Origin: Escherichia phage SKA49 | Sequence record: NC_079180.1 | DNA length: 51,548 nt | Strand: one strand, 5' to 3' | Shown: positions 2,526 through 51,548 of the stretch, one piece after another | How the letters are laid out: the number at the start of each line of letters is the position of its first letter | Position numbering within the stretch: the first letter of the stretch is position 1 | Made by a program: the position numbers and the translations under genes | Notes under the pieces: generated by a model | Told to the model about the DNA's origin: nothing | Databases searched by the model: none | Seen by the model: the letters and a program-made list of their open reading frames with translations, nothing else

Positions 2526-3300
2526 GCAATATTGCTGCATGTAATATTGTTTCAATATTCGACATTAGTTGGATGTGAAGTAACAGAATACGGAGAAGTA
2601 TTCCGCATGTCATGTTGAATCATTCTAGAAACATTCAGCATGTCAGCTTTGAGTTACAGCGTTGTAATGATGTGGCAATCATTGAACTCCCTGGGAAGGC
2701 CACCTACAGTTCCAGCAACCATGACTTAGAGTAGGAATATCTATCCGAAACTTGGACTTCATTGTAGTTTGGTGTGCTTCATCGTGAGAAAGGTAGCGAC
2801 AACTTTCATAAGCAAATAGCATGACTCATTCCAGACAAACTTGGAACAGCTCATGTAGTACCAGCATGTTCAATTGCGACAATATTGCTCCATCTCCTAT
2901 TATAAAGGCCCACCCACAAGCCGGGAGATAACTTTGGTAATATTGGAACTTTTGGACATGCTTCTTTCTTTCAATCAGAATTCGAAAGAAGAGAAGAGTC
3001 GGAGCAAAGCCTCTCGTTTACACGCAGAAGCCGCCCCGATTTTGAGCAACAAATATTGTGACAATATTGTCGCAGTATGGCATGTAAATATTGCTACAAA
3101 TTGGCATGTTAGAATGTGGCAGAATTGTTAGAGGACTAATCACCTCGAAGATACAATCGTCTGCCAATCTGGCATGTTAATTTTGTAACAGTATTTGTGC
3201 CAATTTCGCATGTAGTATTTAACCCAATATTCTTGCAACCCGCATGAATACTGGCTTTCAGCCAAGCGAAGGCTTTATCATCGCATGTAATATTGTGACA
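2526..3300. repeat. cluster of AT-rich palindromic motifs (CAATATTG, GACAATATTGTC) and GCATGTAATATTG-like repeats
   Basis: CAATATTG or near copies at about 2527, 2545, 2877, 3049, 3058, 3087, 3294, 3302; (G/C)GCATGT(A/T)A-TATT at about 2536, 3080, 3102, 3169, 3205, 3282. Confidence 0.5.
2562..2580 (+). promoter_or_regulatory. phage promoter-like motif ACATTAGTTGGATGTGAAG
   Basis: Conserved about 19-bp motif in an intergenic position, one of eight copies. Confidence 0.55.
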
Positions 3301-3508
3301 ATATTGGGATAAAACCCTTTATTTAAATCATTTAGTTTATTAATTAAATGGTCGGTTTTCTGTACATAGGTATTCAGCTGTTTGTGCCAAATACAAACAA
3401 GTTGGCTGCTTCTACAGAACTCCAGTGCTACAAATGTTCGTGCCAATCTGCTGCAATTTATCTCATTTGGCGGGGTAATATTGTATTAGGTTGGTACGTC
3501 ATTATTTC

Positions 3509-10265: not shown

Positions 10266-10334
10266 TTCCAGGCGGGTTTCTTCGAAGTGCCAAGCGGGTT
10301 TTGTGCTCGCATTGGCCTTCGGCTTTAGTCTGAA

Positions 10335-10353
10335 ACATTAGTGGGATTTGATT
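10335..10353 (+). promoter_or_regulatory. phage promoter-like motif ACATTAGTGGGATTTGATT
   Basis: Preceded by CTGAA as in other copies; intergenic. Confidence 0.45.
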
Positions 10354-10476
10354 CTGACCACTTAGGGGAAGAAAGGCATTATACACTTATCGCCAAATGG
10401 GTGTCAAGCACTTTCTTCATTTATTTAATTTTATTCTTATTATTCTTTTTGTTTGGAATATTGGAATAATTCTGAA

Positions 10477-10495
10477 ACATTAATTGGAATTGAAG
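10477..10495 (+). promoter_or_regulatory. phage promoter-like motif ACATTAATTGGAATTGAAG
   Basis: Preceded by TCTGAA; intergenic, second copy in the same spacer. Confidence 0.45.
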
Positions 10496-12436: not shown

Positions 12437-12465
12437 GTCGTTTGACGAATCAGAGCAGTTCTGAA

Positions 12466-12484
12466 ACATTAGTTGGATGTGGAA
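12466..12484 (+). promoter_or_regulatory. phage promoter-like motif ACATTAGTTGGATGTGGAA
   Basis: Best consensus copy; about 75 nt upstream of the codon-optimised gene 12560. Confidence 0.6.
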
Positions 12485-12898: not shown

Positions 12899-13795
12899 GT
12901 TGCCGATGGCAAACTTGAGAGACTAAGCTAAATCGATCTGGCATGCACTGGAAGTTTCCGGTGCTGCCTTGAACCCATTCCAGAGTGAGTGGGCTTCAAT
13001 TTGTACATAATTCAAACACCAGTGCATGAGCCTTCGACGGAAGGCAATGTTGGGAAATTTGTTGTGTACAAATTGAAGTAGTTTTCTGAGTCTTACGACG
13101 GGCCTAAACTGCCTGGAGTTATTGCGACTGTTTTATTCATTTAAAATAAATGCAAATGATTCTGAAATGCGAGTTGCGGCTTAATTAAATTTAAGTCCTC
13201 TCCGTGGTCTTCCAATCCCACGTAACCAAATTTGGCGCATTGTGGCTTCGAGATGTGATTAATAAATCGGAGCAATAATTAATTTGTATTCTGCGATGCA
13301 AAGCAGGCTTAAGTCCTCCAGTGCGCGTGGGGATGTGACAGAGTACAAACTTAATTATGCAGTTGGATATTTCTAGAGGACGGACGAGCACACTGGAATG
13401 TCTTCAATTGGTTTAGTGTGAGAAGCTATGCCAATTTGAAACGTAACTCCTTGGGGAAGTGCTCCTCTGGATTTCCCTCCACGCAGGAATCTCAAGCCTG
13501 TGGCAGTGACTTCGAAGCTGCACTGCGTAACCTAATTCACCCTAAAGTGAATTGCCCTGAGCATGGAAATAAACTGCTCAAACCGATGGTATCTACAAAG
13601 GTAGATTAAATCAGGTTGCCTGTTGGTACTTGGGTTCAACACCTGCTTGCACTCGCAAAGTAGTGCCTCGTACCTGAGATGAAGTGAGTCGGGACCATCA
13701 ATCCCACGTTATGTCAAAACACAGTAGGCGACTCACGGATTCTACAAGCCTCGCAGTTCGGGAAAACCTGCGTTATCAAAACCCCCCACCTATTT

Positions 13796-13887
13796 GGACG
13801 AGTAGCTCAGAAGGTTTGCATTGTGCTCAGTCAGGTAGAGCAATCTGTTCGACAGATGTGTCGTTGGTTCGAATCCAACCTCGTCCA
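13796..13887 (+). tRNA. tRNA-like element (possible tRNA gene or pseudogene; isotype undetermined)
   Basis: Perfect 7-bp acceptor stem GGACGAG/CTCGTCC, canonical T-arm GTTGG-TTCGAAT-CCAAC, discriminator A; core about 19 nt longer than standard, with duplicated GCTCAG flanking a 20-nt insert. Confidence 0.4.
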
Positions 13888-13917
13888 CCCATTTTCAACA
13901 ATAAACATGGAGTCCTC

Positions 13918-14058
13918 ATGGACATTGATGCACTAGACAATTTGGACTTCGGTGCTGCCGAAGAAGCAATTGAAGAACTCAAGAAAAAGCAGGACGAAGA
14001 AGCAATCGTTCCTGGTGCTGGCGATAATGACTGCTCAAGCGGTGCGTGTGCCATCTAA
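13918..14058 (+). CDS. possible small acidic protein (46 aa)
   Basis: ATG with GGAG RBS 7 nt upstream; C-terminal part of track ORF 13684..14058, whose 5' part overlaps the tRNA-like element. Confidence 0.3.
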   Translation: MDIDALDNLDFGAAEEAIEELKKKQDEEAIVPGAGDNDCSSGACAI

Positions 14059-14066
14059 GGTGATTT

Positions 14067-14303
14067 ATGCAACAGCTTAAATCAGTAATTCTTGGCGTCC
14101 TGACTGCATTTGGTATTATCATTGCAGTGTTCCTCAAAGGCAAAAGCTCAGGCAAAGCCGAGGAGCGTCAGGAAGCCAAAGAGAAGCAATTCGATTCCAT
14201 TAAAGAATCTATCGAGATTAAAACGCATGTTCAGAAAGAAGTGTCTAGCAGTTCTGATAGCAATGTCGATAGTGAGTTGCTCTCAAAGTGGGTTCGTAAG
14301 TGA
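14067..14303 (+). CDS. small membrane protein (N-terminal TM helix, charged C-terminus; 78 aa)
   Basis: AAGGTGA RBS; TM segment SVILGVLTAFGIIIAVFL. Confidence 0.45.
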   Translation: MQQLKSVILGVLTAFGIIIAVFLKGKSSGKAEERQEAKEKQFDSIKESIEIKTHVQKEVSSSSDSNVDSELLSKWVRK

Positions 14304-14436
14304 TTATTGCTTAATTGCACAACCAATCTATTTGGATGTTGCAGAAGTGAAAATCTTATCACGCGAAACCAAAACACAGATTCTAGTCCACAATGAAACG
14401 TGGGCACAAAAGTGTTCTCAACTTACCCGACAGTGA
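14227..14436 (+). CDS. possible lipoprotein (69 aa) overlapping the 3' end of 14067..14303 in another frame
   Basis: Signal-like MFRKKCLAVLIAMSIVSC with lipobox-like IVSC; weak RBS. Confidence 0.25.
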   Translation: MFRKKCLAVLIAMSIVSCSQSGFVSDYCLIAQPIYLDVAEVKILSRETKTQILVHNETWAQKCSQLTRQ

Positions 14437-15786: not shown

Positions 15787-16437
15787 ATGATTACTGCAAC
15801 ACTCGTTGACCACATGGGCAGCGACCTCACCACTGTTAATGCTGCACGAGTTTCTTATGGTGCAGAGTCGCATGAAATATCTTTACGTGACGAGAAGCTG
15901 ATTGAGTTTCTTGCAAAGCATAAGCACATTACGCCGTTTCGCCACGCACAGGTAACATTGCGTTGCAAAGCTCCAATCTTCATTGCACGTCAGCTTGGCA
16001 AACATCAAACTGGCTTTAGTTGGAATGAGGTTAGCCGTCGTTACAAAGATGGCGAAGCAATCTCTATTGAATGCTTTGTACCAGGTGTTGTATTTGGTCG
16101 TCCTGAAAAGTTGATGACTCAGACTGCACAACCGTTGCCACAAGATTTTGCTGACGATATTCATTATCGCATGGAAAGCCATAACAAGGCTTGCATCGCA
16201 GAGTATGAAACGTTAATTGGTTTGGGGATTGCCCCAGAGCAAGCTCGCATGGTTCTCCCACAATCCATGATGACTGAATGGATTTGGACTGGCTCACTTT
16301 ATGGCTGGGCATCTATGTATAATCAACGTTCCTCCGAACATGCGCAATATGAAGTTCGCTTGTTTGCGGAAGAAGTGAATAAAATCATGTCAGAACTGTT
16401 CCCAATTTGTTGGAAGGCTCTGACCAACCAGGAATAA
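15787..16437 (+). CDS. thyX: ThyX-like flavin-dependent thymidylate synthase (divergent)
   Basis: ARQLGKHQTGFSWNEVSRRY resembles the ThyX RHRx7S signature, with KHQ in place of RHR; N-terminal AARVSYG block. Confidence 0.55.
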   Translation: MITATLVDHMGSDLTTVNAARVSYGAESHEISLRDEKLIEFLAKHKHITPFRHAQVTLRCKAPIFIARQLGKHQTGFSWNEVSRRYKDGEAISIECFVPGVVFGRPEKLMTQTAQPLPQDFADDIHYRMESHNKACIAEYETLIGLGIAPEQARMVLPQSMMTEWIWTGSLYGWASMYNQRSSEHAQYEVRLFAEEVNKIMSELFPICWKALTNQE

Positions 16438-20205: not shown

Positions 20206-20450
20206 TGGTTGTTGTATCTATATTCGACAAAGTGGACCATTTACACTTTGTCAATAAAGGCGAAGACGCACGGGAAGCTGTGCTGTCTGTAATTACCGAG
20301 AATGCTGAAACATTATTTGGAAGTGATTCTGCTACCAATTCAGTGTATCAGGCATTCATTAAAACTTTATCTGGTCCTGTCGTCAATGAGCAAGAGTTAA
20401 TCTCTTGTATGAACGACCTGGACTTCTCCCTAGTTATCACTCAACTGTAA
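20205..20450 (+). CDS. hypothetical protein (81 aa)
   Basis: ATG overlaps polymerase stop; track ORF. Confidence 0.5.
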   Translation: MVVVSIFDKVDHLHFVNKGEDAREAVLSVITENAETLFGSDSATNSVYQAFIKTLSGPVVNEQELISCMNDLDFSLVITQL

Positions 20451-29486: not shown

Positions 29487-30519
29487 CGACGAAGATACCG
29501 TGAATGAAGTAGTTTTGTTGAACGACAAGGCTACTTTAACGACCCGTCGTTTACGTGACTCTGGCGAAATGATTGCAGAATGCACCATCGCTCGTACTGG
29601 CATCATGCTGTACAAAGCGAAAGAACTTGGTGAAATTGCAAAACATCTGGACCCAGAATCTATTTGCCGTGTTCGTACCAAGCCGGAAGTATTATTTGAC
29701 GAAGCAACCATCGAAGGCTGTCGTTCAATTCCGGTTACTATCGGCCATCCGAAAGATGATGTTAACATCAAGAACAACAAAGAACTCCAGAAAGGGTTCA
29801 TCGAAGGGCGTCCAGTTGCAGACGGCTCTTTCTTGGCTGCATCAATCGTTTTGAATGACGAGCAAGCTGTTCGATTAGTTGATTCTGGTGTTGACCAAAT
29901 CTCCTTGGGCCATAATGCTAAACTGGCTGTATCAGAAGATGGTGAAGCCGACTTCGATAAAGTTCGCATTATCCCTAACCATGTTGCAATTGTTGTTCGT
30001 GGTCGTGCTCAGACTACTCGCATTGGTGACTCTGGTGAAGAGATTGCCATTGTTGATAAGGCAACCTTTGATGTTGTTGAAGCAGAGCGTGATGCAGCGC
30101 TTGACAAGATTAGTGTCCTTGAACAGAAACTTGCTGATGCAGAAACTGCACGACTATCCGATGAAGCTATTCAGGCTGAGGTAGACAAACGTGTAGTTGC
30201 TCGTACAGCATTGCTTGTTGATGTGGCCCGTCTTGGCGACGAGTTCTCCAACCTCGATTTCTCCGGCAAGACCGATGCAGAAATTAAGTTGGCTGTAGTT
30301 AATAAATTGCATGACAAGGATTTCAGCGATAAGAGCGAAGACTATATCTCCGCCCGTTTCGATGCAGCTCTTGAAGATTGCGATTCCATTACTTTGGGAG
30401 ATGCCCTGAATCAGTCTATGCAATTCGCTGCTAAGAAAGATTCAGAAGCTCGTAAACCTAAAGTTTCTATTTCCGAAGAAGCTAACAAACGTCGTTTAGA
30501 ACGCTTCAACTCTTTATAA
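29455..30519 (+). CDS. prohead protease/scaffolding protein (putative; GTG start uncertain)
   Basis: Between portal and capsid genes; C-terminal coiled-coil ISVLEQKLADAETARLSDEAIQAEVDKR. Confidence 0.5.
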   Translation: MKQNQNLVQLNDEDTVNEVVLLNDKATLTTRRLRDSGEMIAECTIARTGIMLYKAKELGEIAKHLDPESICRVRTKPEVLFDEATIEGCRSIPVTIGHPKDDVNIKNNKELQKGFIEGRPVADGSFLAASIVLNDEQAVRLVDSGVDQISLGHNAKLAVSEDGEADFDKVRIIPNHVAIVVRGRAQTTRIGDSGEEIAIVDKATFDVVEAERDAALDKISVLEQKLADAETARLSDEAIQAEVDKRVVARTALLVDVARLGDEFSNLDFSGKTDAEIKLAVVNKLHDKDFSDKSEDYISARFDAALEDCDSITLGDALNQSMQFAAKKDSEARKPKVSISEEANKRRLERFNSL

Positions 30520-30528
30520 GGTAAGACA

Positions 30529-31002
30529 ATGCCAAAGCAAGATTGGTCTATTAATACTGGTGAAGCATATGCAGGTGAACAATACGGCCTGGCTACCACC
30601 AACTCCCAGCGCCTGACTTACGTTGCCGAAGAAGAAATGGCAAACTTTGGTCTGGCTGTTGTTCAAGGCACGGCATCTAATCAGGTTAAACCTGGTATTG
30701 GAGCAGACGGTACTGTTCTGGGCGTTACTATGCGCCAGCTTAACATCGAATCTGCCACCCGTCCTGGTGACGGTACTGTTGCAATCAAAGTTGGTTGGCC
30801 TCTGGGTGTTATGCTGTCTGGCCCAATCATGGTCAAACTGAAAGCCGCAATCACCGACAAGAACATTGGTGTATCCACTAAAGGTGAATTTGGTGGCGTT
30901 GGTGCTGGCTATACTAAAGCAACCAACCTGACTGCACTGCGTTATCCGGCTTCCGCTGGCGATGTTGTTCCGGTCATGATTAACGTAGTCCCAAAGCCGT
31001 AA
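30529..31002 (+). CDS. head decoration protein-like structural protein (157 aa; zero-frame product)
   Basis: Host-optimal codons; position between scaffold and major capsid genes as for lambda D. Confidence 0.6.
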   Translation: MPKQDWSINTGEAYAGEQYGLATTNSQRLTYVAEEEMANFGLAVVQGTASNQVKPGIGADGTVLGVTMRQLNIESATRPGDGTVAIKVGWPLGVMLSGPIMVKLKAAITDKNIGVSTKGEFGGVGAGYTKATNLTALRYPASAGDVVPVMINVVPKP

Positions 31003-36489: not shown

Positions 36490-36665
36490 TATCCCTGTTC
36501 CCCGACATAAAATATTTTCTGCATCGTCCTATAATCGAAGACAGTTCTCTCTGCAAGTTACGTGAATTGCAAGATGGAACCTATTCGATTATGGACTTAT
36601 TGCTATTCCACGACATTCTCGATTTGCGTAAGAAACTCGAACCAGTAGATGAAGACAATGGCTAA
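36031..36665 (+). CDS. predicted -1 frameshift product of tail assembly chaperone (G-T / E-E'-like)
   Basis: Slippery heptamer T_TTT_TTC at 36387-36393; -1 frame stop TGA 36384-36386 immediately upstream; -1 frame open for 93 codons to TAA 36663-36665, overlapping the tape-measure start. Confidence 0.5.
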
Positions 36666-39600
36666 TCAAAAAGATTTAATGAAGTTGAGCGTTAATGAGT
36701 TAATTGCATTAGGCTCTCAAAGCGGTCTGACTTTCCATGCTGGTATGAAGAAGTCGCACATGGTTCAACAACTTAGTGCGAGCGCTGCTTCGGGATGGCT
36801 GGATACAAATGCAGAATTAATGGGTGGGTCGTTTGAAGATGACAGTTTAATTACTGAATCTTTGGGCGACTCTTCCATGATTTCAGACGCTGCCCACATT
36901 GCACAAGTGCTTTCAAGTGCTGGCTACACAGAAGCATTTCATGCAGCAATGAATGGCCCAACACACCATGTAGAAGCTGTTCACGCATACATGGAAAGGC
37001 TTGGTGTCAACACAGATGATGTGTGGATGCACATGCCAAAGCCAAATCCGAACTTACCGCAAGGTAGCTTCAACATGCTTAATGCCTATATGCGAGATAC
37101 TTTGCAAGGGCATCAAGATATTATGCCAGAAATCCCAGGCCACTATGCTGGGGATATTATGGCTGAATACTCCACCAACCGTGGAAACATTGCTGACTCA
37201 TATAACTACATGGCTCACATGTATGTTGACCGTGAGCAATACAGCAATCATGAACAATACGCAAGAGACATTAGTCGAGTTGCCAAACGTCTGGAACAAG
37301 AGTTACCCGCAGCCTTTAAGGAAGTTGGGTATACCTCGGCCTCTAATGTAGGAAATAAATCGGCCCCACATATTTCTTACATGGATGCACTTCCTCAGAT
37401 TGGTTCTCCTTCAATTGTTTCTGGCATTGCACATCCTCGTGCACCTCTTAACGCATCTGGACTTCCTCTTGGTTCTTATGGTTCTGGCATAAATCCAGAA
37501 TACTCCCTCACTGCATCATTAACTGGTGGCACTGGTTGGAGTGAACCAAGCAAGGCTTTATATTCCTCTATTAGTGAAGCTGTTAAATCTGCTGCCAAAG
37601 TTTATTCTGGTTCCAAAGGGATGATGAATACTCGTCACGAAGTATCTGACCGTGACATGATTATGGACAGCGCAACTCGCTATACAGATTTGGAAGAAGC
37701 CAGAAGCGGGTACGAAAACCTTCGTTCTGAACTTGCAGATGAACCGGCTTATTCTGCATCGAGTGTTCGAGCTATTCTCGAAAACACTTATGACAAAATG
37801 GATTCCGAACCTGTTCGCATTCCAAAGATGAAGGGAGCATCTCAGCGAGTCGAAAAAGATTCGCAATCAACATCTACAGAATTTACAGCACAACTTGGAG
37901 AGGCCACCAATTGGAACTCTGCAAGAATGCGTCGTGAGGAAATTGCGATTGCAAATATGGATAGTGCTGGATTCCGTGATGTATCAGACTATGGTACAGG
38001 ACGTTCCGAGTCTCCCGTCAGATTCCATGACTTAGAACAGGGCAGCCAAGAGTGGCTAGACTTCCGTAAAAACTATGACATAACTGGTTCAACTGTTGGA
38101 ACTTTCTTAGGAAACAACCCATACACCCGACCTTGGGCGGGAATGATTGACAAGATTGGTCTATCTCGTAGTAAAGAGCACAGCGATTTCACTAAGAAGA
38201 TGTTCGCTGATGGTCACAGGACGGAAGAAGAAGCACGCGCTCGTGTTGGTAAGGAATTTGGATTCGATATCAAACAAACTGGCGCTATAACAAATGACAA
38301 CTATCCCGCCTTCATGTATTCTCCTGATGGTCTTATTGGCGATGATGCCATTTGGGAGCACAAGAATCCGCAAAGGGCTGGTAAGTTTGCTGACCTTCTT
38401 AAAGGCGACCATCCAGATTACATGGACCAAATTCAATTTGGTATGCACGTTTCTGGCCGTTCTCGTGCTTTGTTCTCACAAACCATCAACGACGAAACAC
38501 GTTCACAGTGGATTGAGAAGGACGAAGGATGGTACGAGAGAAACAGAAATCGCCTTGATTCTGTTCTTGGCCGTCTTGATGCTGGGCGAGAGTTTGTTAG
38601 AAACAATGCTGGACTAGACCGAGAAGAACTGATTGCTGGTGCAAGAAGTGCAATGACTGGTGATGGTATCTGGAAGGATATTCGTCAAAGGTCAACTCGT
38701 GGCTACTCTGCCATTGCTGGAACTCCAGAAGACCCATTTATTGGTTCACGTTCTTCGTACAATCCAAAGGCATCATATTCTGACTACCAGCCAAACTTTG
38801 TAATGCACGAGCAAAACTTTCCAGCAACCACAGGAAACGGTGATACTGGAAACGACTCGATGGCATTGTCTGTTAAGAAAGGTATCCTTGCTGCTCAGGA
38901 AGAAAACAGGCAGAAGGGTATTGGTGCAGATGCAGACTTTAATGGCAAAGCCGATTCAATGGGTTGGGACCGCGAAAGATTTGATGCTGCCAATGGCGGT
39001 GGATATTCTGGCGGTGGTGGTGGTCGTGGCGGCAACTTCACAAGCGGTGGCAACTACTATGATGACTACGGTCGCATGGGTGGTTCACTAGCTGCTGGCA
39101 TTGCTGGAGGTAGTATTGGTTCAGCAACCAACGGAGTTATGCAAGCATTAATGGCAACTCCTGCGGGACGTATGGCTGCTGTAGGCATTGGTGCTATTCA
39201 GATTGGCAATGAAGCTGCTGAATACATGAATGACTTTATCGGCAACTCGCTTGATGCTGGCGTGATAAATCCTAATGAATACTCTTCTATGTCGCAAGGC
39301 TTGGAGATGTTAGGACTCAACTCACAACAAGCGGCACGTCTGAATCAAACCACACATAGTGCCTACAACACCATGCTTAACGGCGACCCCAGCGCCGCTG
39401 TGAACATCGTTCGCGGCAGTAGGGGATTGCTCACCATAGGTGATATTCGTGCGACAGGCGGCGACCCTGTGGCCCTAGCTCGCATCATGCAGGAAAGGGG
39501 CAAGGAGCGTGGCTGGAGTCAGGCCCGTATCGCAGGTGCTGCCGAAATGGCTGGCCTGAATGGGATGGCGCGAGCCTACGACCGCACGGAATACAGCCAT

Positions 39601-40374
39601 GAGCAAGCTGGTTCGGTGGTAGAAGCGGGTAGAAACTCTGACTTTGCCGAAGGTATGGCCCAGTCGGAAATGTTGCAGGGAAGCCGCGCACGGATGCTGC
39701 CGAGCTACAACGTGCCACAAAGTGTCTTATCTAACGGTGCTTCCGTATTCGAGGCTGGCAGTGATTCACTTGATAGTGTACGCACTGGATTCAATAATAC
39801 GCGAGAATTTGCTGGAAGTGTTTACGACTTTATCGCCCAGGAAGAATCTGGCGGTCGTGAATATAACAAAGATGGTTCTCGTGTAACAAGTCGTACTGGT
39901 GCTCGTGGGATAATGCAGATTCTTCCTTCAACAGCTCGTGACCCAGGATTTGGAATCAGGCCGTCTGATGGAACTCCGGAAGATGATGCACGAGTTGGTC
40001 GTGAATATTATGACGCAATGTACAAGCGTTATGGCGACCACGAAAAGGCAATGGCTGCTTACACCGATGGTCCTGGAACTGTTGACAAAGCTGTTGATAA
40101 GAATGGGCTGGATTGGCTAACTGCTGTTCCTGTACAAGCACAGAATCGCGTCAAAGCATTCCGTGAATGGGCCAAGTCTTCTCAGACTTTGGAAGAAGGT
40201 GCTACAGGGTTTACTCGCAATGGAATGTCGTACGGTCAAACCCAAACTGTTGTTAATGTTAAGATTGATGCTAAGGTCAACAACCAGACTGCTTCTGCTA
40301 CAGTGGCAATTCCTGGTGGTCAGACTGTGACTCAACAAATGAACATGCACAATGGTGCGCAACAAAGAAGATAA
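36649..40374 (+). CDS. tape-measure-like large virion protein with C-terminal lytic transglycosylase domain
   Basis: Transglycosylase motifs QEESGG, GARGIMQILPSTA, AYTDGPGTV; Gly-rich segment; N-terminal Rho_N-like LSVNELIALGSQSGL; mid-region YqaJ-like motifs ITGSTVG...NPY, EHKNP, DQIQFGMHVSG. Confidence 0.6.
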   Translation: MKTMANQKDLMKLSVNELIALGSQSGLTFHAGMKKSHMVQQLSASAASGWLDTNAELMGGSFEDDSLITESLGDSSMISDAAHIAQVLSSAGYTEAFHAAMNGPTHHVEAVHAYMERLGVNTDDVWMHMPKPNPNLPQGSFNMLNAYMRDTLQGHQDIMPEIPGHYAGDIMAEYSTNRGNIADSYNYMAHMYVDREQYSNHEQYARDISRVAKRLEQELPAAFKEVGYTSASNVGNKSAPHISYMDALPQIGSPSIVSGIAHPRAPLNASGLPLGSYGSGINPEYSLTASLTGGTGWSEPSKALYSSISEAVKSAAKVYSGSKGMMNTRHEVSDRDMIMDSATRYTDLEEARSGYENLRSELADEPAYSASSVRAILENTYDKMDSEPVRIPKMKGASQRVEKDSQSTSTEFTAQLGEATNWNSARMRREEIAIANMDSAGFRDVSDYGTGRSESPVRFHDLEQGSQEWLDFRKNYDITGSTVGTFLGNNPYTRPWAGMIDKIGLSRSKEHSDFTKKMFADGHRTEEEARARVGKEFGFDIKQTGAITNDNYPAFMYSPDGLIGDDAIWEHKNPQRAGKFADLLKGDHPDYMDQIQFGMHVSGRSRALFSQTINDETRSQWIEKDEGWYERNRNRLDSVLGRLDAGREFVRNNAGLDREELIAGARSAMTGDGIWKDIRQRSTRGYSAIAGTPEDPFIGSRSSYNPKASYSDYQPNFVMHEQNFPATTGNGDTGNDSMALSVKKGILAAQEENRQKGIGADADFNGKADSMGWDRERFDAANGGGYSGGGGGRGGNFTSGGNYYDDYGRMGGSLAAGIAGGSIGSATNGVMQALMATPAGRMAAVGIGAIQIGNEAAEYMNDFIGNSLDAGVINPNEYSSMSQGLEMLGLNSQQAARLNQTTHSAYNTMLNGDPSAAVNIVRGSRGLLTIGDIRATGGDPVALARIMQERGKERGWSQARIAGAAEMAGLNGMARAYDRTEYSHEQAGSVVEAGRNSDFAEGMAQSEMLQGSRARMLPSYNVPQSVLSNGASVFEAGSDSLDSVRTGFNNTREFAGSVYDFIAQEESGGREYNKDGSRVTSRTGARGIMQILPSTARDPGFGIRPSDGTPEDDARVGREYYDAMYKRYGDHEKAMAAYTDGPGTVDKAVDKNGLDWLTAVPVQAQNRVKAFREWAKSSQTLEEGATGFTRNGMSYGQTQTVVNVKIDAKVNNQTASATVAIPGGQTVTQQMNMHNGAQQRR

Positions 40375-45743: not shown

Positions 45744-46888
45744 TGACTAAACGCTTAACATTTAAATTCCCTTGGGCGCAAGATGGTGAAATTGCTGACC
45801 CAGACTTAGACACAACCAACCCAAGTTATGTTGCAAACCGATATGCAAGCATGGGCTGGGAAGCTGAGAAGCCACCAAACGAATGGCAGAACTTCTTAAC
45901 ACAGATTAGTGATTTAAAGATTATGTCTTTACTCTTCTCTGGTGTGGCAGAGTTTGATAGTAGTGTTACATATCAAACTGGTGCAGTGTCTGTTCTCAAT
46001 GGTGTTGTGCAAATTAAGGTTGCCTCTGGCTGGGAACAAATCCTAGACATGAAGACTGTAGATTATCTAAATGATGTTGCAGCATTGAAACTCATTTATG
46101 ACAATCACATGGCTACCGAGAATCCGCACAACGACACAGTTGATACGCTGGTGGATAAAGGAAGAACAAAGGCAAATATTGATATTGCCTTTGGGAGTGC
46201 TACCGACCCTCAAACAATTGTTTATCACAAATTGCAACAAGGTCGTGTTCACCAGGAAACTCCAGAGCAGGTTGGCACTCTTCCAACATCTGGTGGTACA
46301 TTCACTGGTCCTGTGTCGTTCCTTGCTGGGATGAAATTTGCGACAGACAACACTGTTAGTATGAACGGTGCAACAGGTCGTTTGGAACTTCGTAGTGGTA
46401 GTCGTATTCTGTCTATTGATGCTCTAGGAAATGTTGTCTGGAGCATAGTTGGTGGTGAAGAATATCCCGTGATGACGGAGCTGAATTACTCAGAGTTTCA
46501 GATTCGTTGGGGAAACAGATTTGCCCTACCGACACCATACTTGAGTATGAACCTATCAGCCAGTATTAACGATGCTTGCTCTGTTCGTGGTTGGAAGATT
46601 TCAACAACGGGAACACCAGTATTTCACCCTATGGGTGGGTTGAAGATGGATGACAATACTGTAACCTTCTCCGGATTTGATGTTTCTTGTCCAACCACAA
46701 TAGTGGCCTTTACAAGAAATGCTTCCGGCACTCTTGGGAGAGGTAACTCTGATGCTCCGTCTGGTGGTTATACAAGCCTTAACACACTCCTTACGAATCT
46801 TGGAATAGTTGATGCTGCTTACGTCGTGAGTATCACTTGCTATCCAACATTAACCGCTTATCAGAAATCAATGTTAGTGAGGCCATAA
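45740..46888 (+). CDS. tail fibre protein
   Basis: 382 aa after baseplate genes. Confidence 0.5.
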   Translation: MMTKRLTFKFPWAQDGEIADPDLDTTNPSYVANRYASMGWEAEKPPNEWQNFLTQISDLKIMSLLFSGVAEFDSSVTYQTGAVSVLNGVVQIKVASGWEQILDMKTVDYLNDVAALKLIYDNHMATENPHNDTVDTLVDKGRTKANIDIAFGSATDPQTIVYHKLQQGRVHQETPEQVGTLPTSGGTFTGPVSFLAGMKFATDNTVSMNGATGRLELRSGSRILSIDALGNVVWSIVGGEEYPVMTELNYSEFQIRWGNRFALPTPYLSMNLSASINDACSVRGWKISTTGTPVFHPMGGLKMDDNTVTFSGFDVSCPTTIVAFTRNASGTLGRGNSDAPSGGYTSLNTLLTNLGIVDAAYVVSITCYPTLTAYQKSMLVRP

Positions 46889-48279
46889 TGGCGCTTCGTC
46901 CTAAATTAAATCGCGTATGGACTTCAAATAACACTGTTGCCAGACGTGACCCAGGGGATGCAAAGTATCTCCAAGGTTGGGTTGCTGAGATACCAACCTA
47001 TCAAGTTTTAAACTATTTGCAGTATAAAGTTGATACCACAATGCTTGCTCAGGCGGAACGTGGAATCTTCGAGTGGGGTGGTGATGTTTCTTATGGTGTT
47101 GGCAGTTTGGCTTGGGACGAAACAAACAAAACTATTTATGTTTGTACTGTAACAAACCCAAGCAAGACTTTGGCCCCAAGTGCCAACCCAGCACAATGGA
47201 GTCCGAGCGCCATTCAGGTATCTCGTGCCAACTATGACTCTGTTGTATCTGCAATCAATACCCATATTGCAAACCGAGCAAACCCTCACCAAGTAACTGC
47301 TGCACAGGTTGGTACATACAACCGTGCTGAAATGGATGCACTTGTATCCAACTATCGAGCAATGGTGTTGGCGCATGCCTCTGACTACAACAACCCACAT
47401 AAGCTAACTGCTGTTCAAGTTGGTGCTGTTCCTGTAACTGGTGGTGAGTATACTGGTCAGGTAACTATGCCGACCGCCTACTTCAATGCCTCCAAGACTG
47501 CACAACTGTTGCAAGACAATGGACTATGGTTGAAGAATGGCAACTACTTACTAGGTATTAACGGTACGACAGGGAATCCCGAAGCAGGAACTGCTGCAAG
47601 CAAGTCCAGGATAGTCACAGAATCTAACTTCCCAGACTTGAAAGCTGCACAAGAGCCTAAATATGCAGTAGAAGCGCCATACTATGAAATGGCACTAATA
47701 GGTTCTGTAAACATACTTCGTGGCGCAGGAACATTCAGTACCGGAGACTCCGAGCCTATGTACTTGGCATCATCTGGGAATGCTCTAACATTCGACAGCA
47801 CACCAACCAGCCCAGCACAGAGATTCGAAGCCTCTTCACAACTTCCTGCTAGCTCAAGTATTACAGTCTGTGCCGATGTTATGAGGGTGTCACAGTCTGA
47901 TACGAGTGATGGCAACTGGCAGCTGAGTTTCGGCACCGCAGATTTCAATATCACTATTGGGTACAATGGGTATACGACCATCAGGTTCAGAGGCCCAACA
48001 GGAGGTATTGTTGCAATGCAGGGGGTAATCTCCCAAGATTTGAAAACTGTTGGTGTGTGGAACAGGTTGTCGGCAACACTTTCTGGAAGCACTATTAAGG
48101 TGTTTGTAAACGGTGTACTGCTATTCTCCAGAGAGCAAGAAGTGGGTGTTGCAGTTGGGAGAGCGCCATTTATAACTAAATGGAGTATGGTTGGGGCTAC
48201 CACAAACTCTAGAATATCTATTAGGTCTTTTAGGTTGTGGAACTCGGCACTAACAGACAAACAAATTTCAACTTTATAG
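46888..48279 (+). CDS. tail fibre protein
   Basis: ATG with GAGG RBS; in frame with track ORF 46837..48279. Confidence 0.5.
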   Translation: MALRPKLNRVWTSNNTVARRDPGDAKYLQGWVAEIPTYQVLNYLQYKVDTTMLAQAERGIFEWGGDVSYGVGSLAWDETNKTIYVCTVTNPSKTLAPSANPAQWSPSAIQVSRANYDSVVSAINTHIANRANPHQVTAAQVGTYNRAEMDALVSNYRAMVLAHASDYNNPHKLTAVQVGAVPVTGGEYTGQVTMPTAYFNASKTAQLLQDNGLWLKNGNYLLGINGTTGNPEAGTAASKSRIVTESNFPDLKAAQEPKYAVEAPYYEMALIGSVNILRGAGTFSTGDSEPMYLASSGNALTFDSTPTSPAQRFEASSQLPASSSITVCADVMRVSQSDTSDGNWQLSFGTADFNITIGYNGYTTIRFRGPTGGIVAMQGVISQDLKTVGVWNRLSATLSGSTIKVFVNGVLLFSREQEVGVAVGRAPFITKWSMVGATTNSRISIRSFRLWNSALTDKQISTL

Positions 48280-49369: not shown

Positions 49370-49711
49370 ATGGAACGATTATCCATTCAGATGTTTATCG
49401 ACCTCATGCACCAATATGGTGTTTGGCATGGATTGCTGGCTGGTCTGACGGCTTTAATCCGTGGGGCATATGAAAGTGAGGGATTAAGCAAAGCGTTGCT
49501 GGATGCAGCGCTATGCAGCTTGATTGGCCTGTTTGCCTTTCATGTTGCTGGCACATTTGAAACTTTTACGACTAACGTCACAATGCAGTTAGTTCTGGCT
49601 ATCGTGATTGGTGTCATTGGTGCTAACCTCATTATCACAACTGTCAGGGAAAGTTTCTCTGGCGCAATCAAACAACTTAACCCTTTAACGTGGTTCAAGA
49701 AGGCACGATGA
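49370..49711 (+). CDS. holin (lambda S-like)
   Basis: AAGGA RBS; 113 aa with hydrophobic segments GLLAGLTALI, LCSLIGLFAFHVAG, LVLAIVIGVIGANLIITTV. Confidence 0.65.
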   Translation: MERLSIQMFIDLMHQYGVWHGLLAGLTALIRGAYESEGLSKALLDAALCSLIGLFAFHVAGTFETFTTNVTMQLVLAIVIGVIGANLIITTVRESFSGAIKQLNPLTWFKKAR

Positions 49712-49728
49712 AATGATAAGGAACTCGA

Positions 49729-50283
49729 ATGCTATCATTCAAAGTCCTTGCACTTCTGGCAGCTTTAGTTCACATCAACGCCCCAGCTTCGGTTGGGGCA
49801 GTGAATTCTGCTATTACAGATTTTGCAAGTCATTCTTATTTAAATGGAAGTCTGAAACTATCTTCTTCACAACGCAAAGAGCTAGAATGCTACACTAAAG
49901 TTATCTGGTATGAAGCTCGCGGAGAAGACAAACATGGAAAGATTCTGGTAGCTAATGTCGTCCGTAATAGAACTGAGTTCGGGAAGCCATTCGCTAACAC
50001 CGTTTGTGATGTTGTCTATCAACGCAATCAATTTGCATGGACACGAGAAGCAAAGAAGAAGAATGCTCAATGGAAGCATGTAGCAAAGATTAATTATGCC
50101 ACAGAACAACAACAAGTTCTGGACACCATTAGTGTTGCAATCTCTTTTGTACTATTTAATCAACCCTCTGTCACCAAAGCAACCCACTTTTGTACAGCAT
50201 CTGAGAAGTGCAACTTCAAGAATGTTAAAGGTCTGGGACGTTATGGTGGCCATAAATTCTATGAGTATCTAGGAAATCTGTAA
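49729..50283 (+). CDS. SleB/CwlJ-like cell wall hydrolase with N-terminal signal sequence (endolysin candidate)
   Basis: [25 protein letters not shown]...[15 protein letters not shown]; N-terminus [24 protein letters not shown]; AAGGA RBS. Confidence 0.7.
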
Positions 50284-51383
50284 TGGCTTACACTACCTTT
50301 TCACAAACCAAGAATAACCAACTACTAGAGCCAATGTTCTTTGGTCAGAACGTTAACGTTGCTCGATATGACCAACAGAAGTACAGCATCTTCGAGAAGT
50401 TAATCGAGAAGCAGTTGTCTTTCTTTTGGCGACCTGAGGAGGTTGATGTTAGCCAGGACCGAATTGACTATGCTGGTCTTCCTGAGTGTGAGAAACACAT
50501 TTTCACCAGCAATTTACGATACCAAATCTTGCTTGATTCCATTCAGGGACGTGGGCCAACTACAGTTTTGCTACCAATTGTGAGCATTCCTGAGCTTGAA
50601 ACTTGGATTGAAACTTGGTCATTCTCAGAGACAATTCACTCTCGTTCTTACACGCATATTATTCGCAATATTGTCACCGACCCAAGCGTCATCTTTGATG
50701 AAATTGTGGAGAATGAGCATATTAAAATGCGTGCAATTGGCATCTCCCAATATTATGACGAGCTTCAACACCTGACTTCCATGTGGCATCTGCATGAAGA
50801 TAAAGTTTCTCTTCGTGAGCTTAAGAAGAAGCTGTATTTATGCCTAATGTCCATCAATGCACTGGAAGCAATTCGCTTTTATGTCAGTTTTGCTTGCTCA
50901 TTTGCCTTCGCTGAACGCAAGTTAATGGAAGGAAATGCCAAGATTATTCGCTTAATTGCTCGTGATGAAGCGCTCCATTTGACCGGAACTCAACACATGC
51001 TGAACCTTCTTGCAAGCGGTGCTGATGACCCAGAAATGGCCGAAATTGCTAAAGAATGCCGCCAAGAATGCCAAGAAATGTTCGAAAATGTGGCCCAACA
51101 AGAGAAAGATTGGGCTGATTATTTGTTCAAAGATGGCTCAATGATTGGCTTAAACAGGCAAATTCTGTGCGGATATGTGGAATATATTACAAATATTCGT
51201 ATGCAAGCAGTTGGATTGGATGCTCCATTCAAAGGTGCTACTAACCCGATTCCTTGGATTAACGCATGGTTGAATTCGGATGCTGTACAAGTTGCTCCAC
51301 AAGAAACGGAGATTAGTTCGTACCTTGTTGGGCAGATTGACTCCGAAGTTGACACCAATGCTCTAGGCGGATTTGAACTATGA
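50283..51383 (+). CDS. nrdB: class Ia ribonucleotide reductase beta subunit
   Basis: Near-colinear with enterobacterial NrdB as I recall it: [54 protein letters not shown]-terminal [13 protein letters not shown]; one short internal deletion. Confidence 0.85.
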
Positions 51384-51470
51384 TTGGGTACGGTGAAGGC
51401 TGACGTTTGTCAGTTAATATGTGAGAAGAGATTCGATGCGTTAGCGTCGTTTCTCTTTGAACTAGAATAA

Positions 51471-51548
51471 AATAAGTAAGTTAAATATTACTTATTCCCA
51501 ATATTGCTACAATATTAAGAGTAATATTAGGAATGCGTAAAGTTCAAA
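51471..51548. repeat. right-end non-coding region with 9-bp AT-rich hairpin and three AATATT(G/A) motifs
   Basis: AATAAGTAA-GTTAAATA-TTACTTATT hairpin; CCAATATTGCTACAATATTAAGAGTAATATTAGG echoes the 2.5-3.3 kb cluster. Confidence 0.35.

Follow-up and report, generated by a model that had tools for sequence, protein, structure and literature searches.

An orphan nrdB gene in Escherichia phage SKA49: a probable hybrid ribonucleotide reductase with host NrdA, and a mini-protein that ends like the NrdA tail

Escherichia phage SKA49 (sequence record NC_079180.1) was analysed over a stretch of 51,548 nucleotides, hereafter the window. Near the end of the window lies nrdB, a gene for the beta subunit of a class Ia ribonucleotide reductase (RNR), and no phage-encoded cognate nrdA, the gene for the alpha subunit, is present in the nrdB genome or operon. 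Given the strong purifying selection on the phage protein, its intact radical site and the lack of a phage alpha subunit, host NrdA is the only plausible partner; we put at roughly 0.7 the probability that the phage beta2 forms an active hybrid with the alpha2 of host NrdA. A 46-residue protein encoded elsewhere in the same genome, with a C-terminus like that of NrdA, probably has the same host enzyme system as its target.

The gene, and the parts of it on which the argument depends, are as follows (positions in the window).

50283..51383 (+): nrdB, class Ia ribonucleotide reductase beta subunit; intact open reading frame (ORF) of 366 codons, assigned by family models and alignment
50796..50807 (+): site of the beta-hairpin deletion (phage ...HED/KV...), with the junction between 50801 and 50802
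51279..51380 (+): C-terminal beta-tail, equivalent to E. coli D342-L375, with E350 and Y356; placed by alignment
50271..50285 (+): Shine-Dalgarno-like AGGAAA and the ATG overlapping the endolysin stop (TAATG, 50281-50285); read from the sequence
51434..51459 (+): terminator-like hairpin and T-run about 50 nt past the nrdB stop; consensus match only

The product of nrdB scores 700.8 bits with NF006576, the NCBIfam equivalog model 'class Ia RNR subunit beta' (cut-off 346), and 167.5 bits with Pfam PF00268 (cut-off 33.6), and it is colinear with E. coli NrdB structures over its full length (E ~1e-200). Pairwise alignment with E. coli NrdB gives 299 identities over 366 residues (81.7%), with a single gap of 10 residues that corresponds to E. 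coli G173-V182 and lies inside a surface beta-hairpin. The six di-iron ligands (D84, E115, H118, E204, E238 and H241) and the radical-bearing Tyr122, which is Y123 in phage numbering, are all identical to those of the E. coli protein, and the radical-transfer residues W48, E52, D237, E350 and Y356 are all retained.

The C-terminal beta-tail of NrdB inserts into NrdA. The phage protein was compared with its E. coli counterpart contact by contact. All direct alpha-beta contacts have been listed for the 2.6-A structure of the E. coli alpha2beta2 complex (PMC11551348, Supporting Information (SI) Tables S9/S10). Of the 32 beta residues in direct contact with alpha, 29 are identical in phage NrdB; two of the three that differ are at sites variable among bacteria, and only N343A alters a bacterially invariant contact. 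Within the tail, 11 of the 13 direct contacts match E. coli. L375 is retained, as are L370 and F373 according to the pairwise alignment, and the changes there are N343A, D368N and D369A. As judged from these residues, there is no decay anywhere at the alpha-contact interface. A reading made earlier from the letters alone (the sequence-only reading) had taken the protein for a host-like class Ia NrdB, nearly colinear with enterobacterial NrdB and with one short internal deletion, and had likened its C-terminal tail to the NrdA-binding tail; it had proposed that the identity and the deletion be checked, and had named the radical tyrosine and the iron ligands as residues that must not be missing. 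The family score, the alignment and the tail contacts bear out this picture, and Tyr122 and all of the ligands are present.

Among five phage copies within the clade, nrdB has a dN/dS ratio (non-synonymous over synonymous divergence) of 0.02-0.08, with dS up to 0.8; strong purifying selection maintains the phage NrdB protein. This bears directly on the idea that nrdB is a decaying leftover of a former nrdAB cassette, or a functionless passenger. The absence of nrdA could be read in that sense, as could the internal deletion, which differs in length among relatives, but such low ratios effectively refute it. Furthermore, the reading frame is intact in 44/44 records, codon usage is fully adapted, all catalytic residues are kept, and the deletions are in frame and restricted to one surface hairpin. 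We give this explanation next to no chance. The hairpin itself is an indel hotspot: some relatives have 372-residue forms, and the tblastn match of FXie-2024a, which was not read directly, spans 369 codons; the cellular NrdB homologues that we observed are all 376-378 residues long. Two database entries were set aside as assembly artefacts, namely P0007, a 494-residue 'NrdB' from NCBI in which repeated PVSYTHLDVYKRQ blocks are the Nextera transposase mosaic-end adaptor and its complement in translation, and P0031, an NrdA-NrdB fusion.

The window covers almost the whole genome of a Carltongylesvirus (Chaseviridae, phiEcoM-GJ1 group), with only some 250-400 bp lacking. It has about 86-88% nucleotide identity to phiEcoM-GJ1 over nrdB and its flanks, and NrdB of this type occurs in 44 database records at 89.8-99.5% identity. 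In the circularly written Bp10 record, the last base of the window falls at 30408 and the first at 30656, which leaves about 247 bp absent from the window. Neither NrdA nor YfaE was found when the E. coli proteins were used as tblastn queries against the window, the Bp10 junction region and the related phage Mangalitsa, and NrdA was also not found in the sister-genus phage 4HA13. No nrdA is annotated in Mangalitsa 1-50,000, where ThyX, dUTPase and a T7-like RNA polymerase are; the final 2.3 kb of Mangalitsa, seen only via the features under the sequence match, hold nrdB and small hypothetical genes. Mangalitsa also has a predicted terminal repeat of 3.2 kb.

A phage large subunit might in principle be cryptic, that is, too divergent for detection or non-homologous, and the phage does carry many small genes of unknown function. 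However, an RNR alpha needs more than 550 residues, and the window's ORFs of at least 400 residues are all assigned elsewhere: RNA polymerase, primase-helicase, DNA polymerase, terminase, portal, sheath and tape measure. A further ORF of 480 residues (46837-48279) is assigned by its place in the baseplate/tail-fibre block, for which the Mangalitsa annotation has hypothetical proteins only. With the E. coli NrdA search negative as well, a hidden alpha subunit is very hard to credit.

The history of the gene is written in its codons and its distribution. Between phage and E. coli nrdB, synonymous sites have reached saturation (pS ~0.9), and only about 69-70% of nucleotides are identical. GC content at third codon positions (GC3) is 0.414 in phage nrdB, against 0.408 in 17 other phage genes and 0.631 in E. 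coli nrdB, and the relative synonymous codon usage (RSCU) of phage nrdB correlates at 0.64 with phage genes and at 0.18 with E. coli nrdAB. The phage protein is 77-82% identical to every sampled Enterobacterales NrdB and to Vibrio NrdB, compared with 87-94% for the Enterobacterales among themselves; its clade branches outside the Enterobacterales crown group, marginally nearest to E. coli, and bears 16 clade-specific changes at sites invariant across ten bacterial sequences. nrdB is absent from the sister genera Sabourvirus (4HA13, an E. coli phage whose whole genome was read), Suwonvirus (PM1) and Myducvirus, all of which end with holin-endolysin. Because these genera stop there without nrdB, the gene is best placed as an old gain behind the lysis cassette, made at the base of the genus and kept since. 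Thus, the sequence-only reading was also right about the surroundings of the protein: it had called the codons phage-like and the acquisition old, and the saturated synonymous sites, the position of the branch and the presence of the gene at the base of the genus agree; it had seen no alpha subunit in the window and had expected little genome outside, and an nrdA just beyond the window, which would have refuted it, was not found in the Bp10 junction or in Mangalitsa.

On the reading that we favour, phage NrdB would be a catalytically competent radical-generating subunit (beta2). During infection, it would build its diferric-tyrosyl cofactor using host factors and dock on host alpha2 by its conserved C-terminal tail and body contacts, giving a hybrid alpha2(host)-beta2(phage) ribonucleotide reductase. 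The added radical-loaded small subunit would then sustain or raise the synthesis of deoxynucleoside triphosphates (dNTPs) for phage DNA replication, beside the phage's ThyX and dUTPase. We infer the pairing, the enzymatic activity and the benefit to the phage from sequence comparison; the pairing is supported indirectly by the purifying selection, by the identity of 29 of the 32 alpha contacts and by the precedent of the poxviruses, to which we return below. The ThyX gene, judged by its homology and position, belongs to the phage's own dNTP-supply gene set.

15787..16437 (+): flavin-dependent thymidylate synthase (ThyX) homologue; from synteny with Mangalitsa_041 and the ORF list

Several points weigh against a hybrid enzyme. 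The RNR subunits of phage T4 and E. coli are not known to cross-complement, and therefore cross-pairing cannot be assumed. Conservation at the alpha contacts (29/32) compared with that elsewhere in the protein (269/343) is not significant when taken alone (Fisher p = 0.07), and the clade-specific tail changes N343A and D369A may change how tightly E. coli NrdA is bound. Placed in the late lysis operon, the gene would be expressed at an odd time for an enzyme of precursor supply. Lastly, Dwivedi et al. 2013 describe it as unknown whether incomplete RNR sets function (PMC3653736).

The nrdB ATG has one base in common with the endolysin stop codon and, as judged from this TAATG overlap, its translation is coupled to the late holin-endolysin cassette; the same Shine-Dalgarno sequence is listed for ORF79 of phage ST32 (PMC6266442). 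A separate promoter-like repeat was looked for upstream of nrdB and none was found. The hairpin and T-run beyond the gene are the probable end of the late transcript, in a genome whose count of terminator-like sites is not above the shuffled expectation.

Late expression would also suit a dominant-negative or regulatory subunit, with phage NrdB sequestering or re-tuning host NrdA (through allosteric control or the shutdown of host-directed synthesis) and adding no activity. The conserved alpha-binding surface is compatible with such a role, as are the lost hairpin and the clade-specific substitutions D302Q and Q306G beside the cone-domain contact patch. Nevertheless, Y122, the six metal ligands and the entire radical-transfer path are invariant under strong purifying selection and would be needless for a pure binder. 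In the dATP-inhibited alpha4beta4 ring, beta I297 packs against alpha I47 (PMC11447812). All beta residues in contact with the cone domain of alpha (I297, S295, M296, N300 and E220) are unchanged in the phage protein and give no sign that it has left this inhibited state; an escape from dATP inhibition was dropped as an explanation for the same reason. A subunit that binds without adding activity is, in our view, quite improbable. The 82% identity between phage and host NrdB would also permit a mixed small subunit, in which the phage protein mainly heterodimerises with host NrdB or replaces radical-depleted host beta2. To this we assign a low probability; host NrdA would still be required, so that it amounts to a variant of the hybrid-enzyme explanation and not an alternative to it.

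A second RNR-related gene, of which the sequence-only reading made no mention, was first met as one weak match of the tblastn search with E. coli NrdA.

13918..14058 (+): gene for a 46-residue protein (MDIDALDNLDFGAAEEAIEELKKKQDEEAIVPGAGDNDCSSGACAI) with a C-terminus resembling the NrdA CX4C redox tail; from tblastn with NrdA, with GGAG 5 nt before the ATG

The protein ends in ...VPGAGDNDCSSGACAI (...EEAIVPGAGDNDCSSGACAI up to the stop), compared with ...DDLVPSIQDDGCESGACKI at the end of E. coli NrdA, and both carry a Cys pair with four-residue spacing at the extreme C-terminus (...DCSSGACAI and ...GCESGACKI, respectively). In NrdA, the C754/C759 tail re-reduces the active site. With the alignment fixed at the C-terminus, 9 of its 19 positions agree with NrdA, with a BLOSUM62 score of 51 compared with 22 for the next-best ORF end; by exact convolution, the probability of such a match is 8.5e-10 per ORF end and 7.7e-7 over 909 six-frame ORF ends, in a test that is post hoc but has a large margin. 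In a scan of 2.9 million viral contigs, the pattern V-P-x3-D-x2-C-x-S-G-A-C-x-I-stop was found only in E. coli NrdA and in this gene. A 6/8 match to the NrdA tail in Proteus phage Myduc (L013:5724-5747) is internal to a short ORF, where no gene is annotated, and was judged to be due to chance.

The gene for the 46-residue protein is under purifying selection. It differs from that of PYps16N by 8 synonymous and 0 non-synonymous changes and from that of Mangalitsa by 12 and 1, respectively, and the codons for Cys, Ser and Asn in the tail vary synonymously only among relatives. Its distribution coincides with that of this NrdB, the same 44 records having both, and it is absent from 4HA13. It lies directly after a tRNA gene and before the spanin genes, 36 kb from nrdB; its origin as the remnant of a captured nrdA 3' end was considered and rejected, a simple nrdA'-nrdB capture being unsupported by this position.

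Scans with the looser pattern C-x-S-G-A-C-x-I-stop returned 141 full-length NrdA ends and, in addition, non-truncated short ORFs without an RNR body. One such type, of 54 residues (MSNP.NPLADYF...RVEAMRDGGGEVVDDKDADGCESGACKI), occurs in at least 58 jumbo-phage records, from Erwinia, Dickeya, Klebsiella, Serratia, Raoultella and Stenotrophomonas phages, and is annotated as hypothetical in all of them. In Alexandra-type phages, a thymidylate synthase gene follows the mini-protein gene at a distance of about 2 kb. The homologues located were the following.

L078:3595-3759, L233:6001-6165 and L237:11024-11173, and also L041, L056, L075, L085, L088, L099, L112 and L124: homologous tail mini-proteins

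The family has the consensus ...RVEEM..GGGEVVE.S..C[ED][SG]G[AG]C.I and lengths of 41-94 residues. A profile search of 5.8 billion proteins gave at least 35 clusters within this length range, none of them named, and the next, weak matches were C-terminal fragments of NrdA. The mini-protein has no match in Pfam and only weak matches in PHROGs, to families of unknown function, and a literature search found no description of such NrdA-tail mini-proteins. The family, and the fact that it occurs alongside orphan NrdB, seem not to have been reported before.

The two types of mini-protein are bridged by Serratia phage PCH45, which also has an orphan NrdB.

PCH45 record, 124783-125889: nrdB; whole genome read (212,807 bp)
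PCH45 record, 111024-111173: mini-protein gene; from tail homology

The PCH45 mini-protein (MTQPKDDFDIDALANVDFDAVDKRVEEMQAGGGEVLEPSNKCESGACEI) and the 46-residue protein of the window have 20/46 identities (E = 4e-9 in pairwise BLASTP), with both the N-terminal motif DIDALxNxDF and the tail in common. PCH45 NrdB has 368 residues and is 80.6% identical to E. coli NrdB by tblastn, with the same hairpin 8 residues shorter, and no NrdA was found in the whole PCH45 genome by tblastn at E up to 1. This shortened-hairpin form is independent of that of Carltongylesvirus. Hence, an orphan NrdB, a shortened hairpin and a tail mini-protein occur together in two unrelated lineages, although the association is not universal, as the NrdB of phage Survivor retains the hairpin. 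More widely, phages with a host-like NrdB are mostly missing from the list of phages with a host-like NrdA: the 41 phage records whose NrdA has 60% or more identity to that of E. coli do not include the jumbo phages Survivor (NrdB 77%), PCH45, pEt-SU, SXP01 and RAY, all with host-like NrdB. The orphan host-like NrdB thus looks recurrent across unrelated phages. A paper on Dickeya jumbo phages never mentions RNR.

What the mini-protein does is a matter of speculation, and our favoured guess is an extra, trans-acting reducing tail that would relay electrons to the active site of NrdA from thioredoxin or glutaredoxin. Such a tail is attractive because steady-state turnover of RNR is thought to be limited by re-reduction through the NrdA tail. 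Other options are a decoy for thioredoxin or glutaredoxin and, by analogy with yeast Sml1, a competitor of the host NrdA tail. In the active complex, beta Y307, Y310, R315, N330 and N336 contact alpha 740-743, the base of the alpha tail (PMC11551348 SI). Because the acidic segment of the mini-protein aligns with this 740-743 stretch of NrdA, one may speculate that the mini-protein docks on beta. Putting the two genes together, we tentatively propose, at somewhat less than even odds, that the mini-protein family and orphan host-like NrdB constitute a kit of two parts with which phages commandeer host NrdA, namely a radical generator and a trans-acting reducing tail (or tail competitor). The E. 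coli class Ia enzyme is the reference system of radical enzymology; if the proposal is true, a naturally occurring tail that works in trans, or that competes with the host's, would represent a novel type of RNR regulator and could be put to use directly as a tool. From the recurrence of the orphan subunit, hijacking of the host's catalytic subunit would seem to be a general strategy, and the repeated loss of the same surface hairpin points to a host-specific role of that hairpin.

Other features of the genome and of related records deserve mention. Just upstream of the mini-protein gene, at 13795-13891 (+), ARAGORN calls a 97-nt tRNA-Leu(CAG), while at the equivalent place the phiEcoM-GJ1 record annotates a tRNA-Arg with the remark 'may contain an intron'; its length and the disagreement over its identity point to an unusual tRNA. 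Right after the mini-protein gene, in the early/middle region, are spanin (Rz/Rz1-type) genes at 14068-14304 (+); these are 35 kb from the holin-endolysin cassette (49370-50283), and the lysis genes are therefore split. A 23-nt motif of the TCTGAAACATTAGTGGGATTTGA type has four intergenic copies in the early/replication region (10329-10351, 10471-10493, 12460-12482 and 20304-20326), which are candidate promoters for the phage T7-like RNA polymerase. A repeated motif with AATATTG...CAATATT half-palindromes occurs at 2511-2559, 3046-3068, 3283-3305 and 51494-51516, flanking the RNA polymerase gene and just after nrdB, with copies near the genome ends or the terminal-repeat boundary. The 1241-residue tape-measure-type protein (36649-40374, +) has an unusual pairing of a YqaJ-like recombinase/exonuclease domain (residues 468-604) with a lytic transglycosylase domain. 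Among database records, 202 E. coli plasmids have a partial nrdB-like DNA match (e.g. NZ_CP182222.1:50743-50894) and are probably SSU5-type phage-plasmids with their own nrdA (63% identity to E. coli). Finally, PP952070.1 ('Staphylococcus phage Pel53', host Staphylococcus hyicus) is a typical Carltongylesvirus, with NrdB, RNA polymerase and mini-protein 90.6%, 92.8% and 97.8% identical to those of the window; its stated Gram-positive host is very likely wrong, to judge from these identities.

The nrdB-only state of the phiEcoM-GJ1 group has already been published, and the bare finding is not new. The RNR beta annotation is already attached to phiEcoM-GJ1 gp75 and ST32 ORF79, each described as the last ORF (PMC6266442), and Table S1 of Dwivedi et al. 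2013, which concerns the same gene in the same phage group, lists phiEcoM-GJ1 with 'nrdB' only, as one of two phages with nrdB alone (PMC3653736). That study tabulated gene content only, with no analysis of selection, interface, acquisition or mini-protein. Compared with the nrdB of E. coli and other Enterobacterales (PDB 1MXR, 6W4X and 9DB2), the phage gene has the high protein identity, metal ligands, tyrosyl-radical site, radical-transfer residues and putative alpha-binding tail in common, and differs in its lack of an adjacent nrdA or yfaE, its 10-residue hairpin deletion and its phage-like codon usage. As for the mini-protein, it resembles the NrdA tail in having C-x-S-G-A-C-x-I at the very C-terminus, with V-P and D upstream at equal spacing; unlike NrdA, which has an RNR body, it is a free protein of 46 residues without the ten-stranded alpha/beta barrel (PF02867) or any Pfam match, and only its last ~19 residues are NrdA-like. 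Yeast Sml1, reportedly described by Zhang and colleagues in PNAS in 2007, is likewise said to be a small protein that acts on the R1 tail, although it is an inhibitor and unrelated to the mini-protein in sequence.

The closest parallel to the system as a whole is found in the poxviruses. Most chordopoxviruses encode the small subunit (R2) only, which forms a hybrid with cellular R1 through the R2 C-terminus and is required for efficient replication (Gammon et al. 2010, PMC2900304). As with vaccinia F4, the window phage encodes R2 and not R1, its R2 is near that of its host (82% identity), most of the R1-contact residues, those of the C-terminus included, are kept (29/32), and the proposed gain is a boost of dNTP supply via a hybrid enzyme. 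The differences are that the present case concerns a bacterial virus and a class Ia bacterial enzyme, that the hybrid is shown for poxviruses and proposed for the phage, and that the NrdA-tail mini-protein has no known poxvirus counterpart. The mechanism that we propose would thus be a known kind of viral strategy, here put forward for a phage, and if the hybrid enzyme is real, the nrdB-only phage would be to bacterial viruses what the R2-only strategy is to poxviruses.

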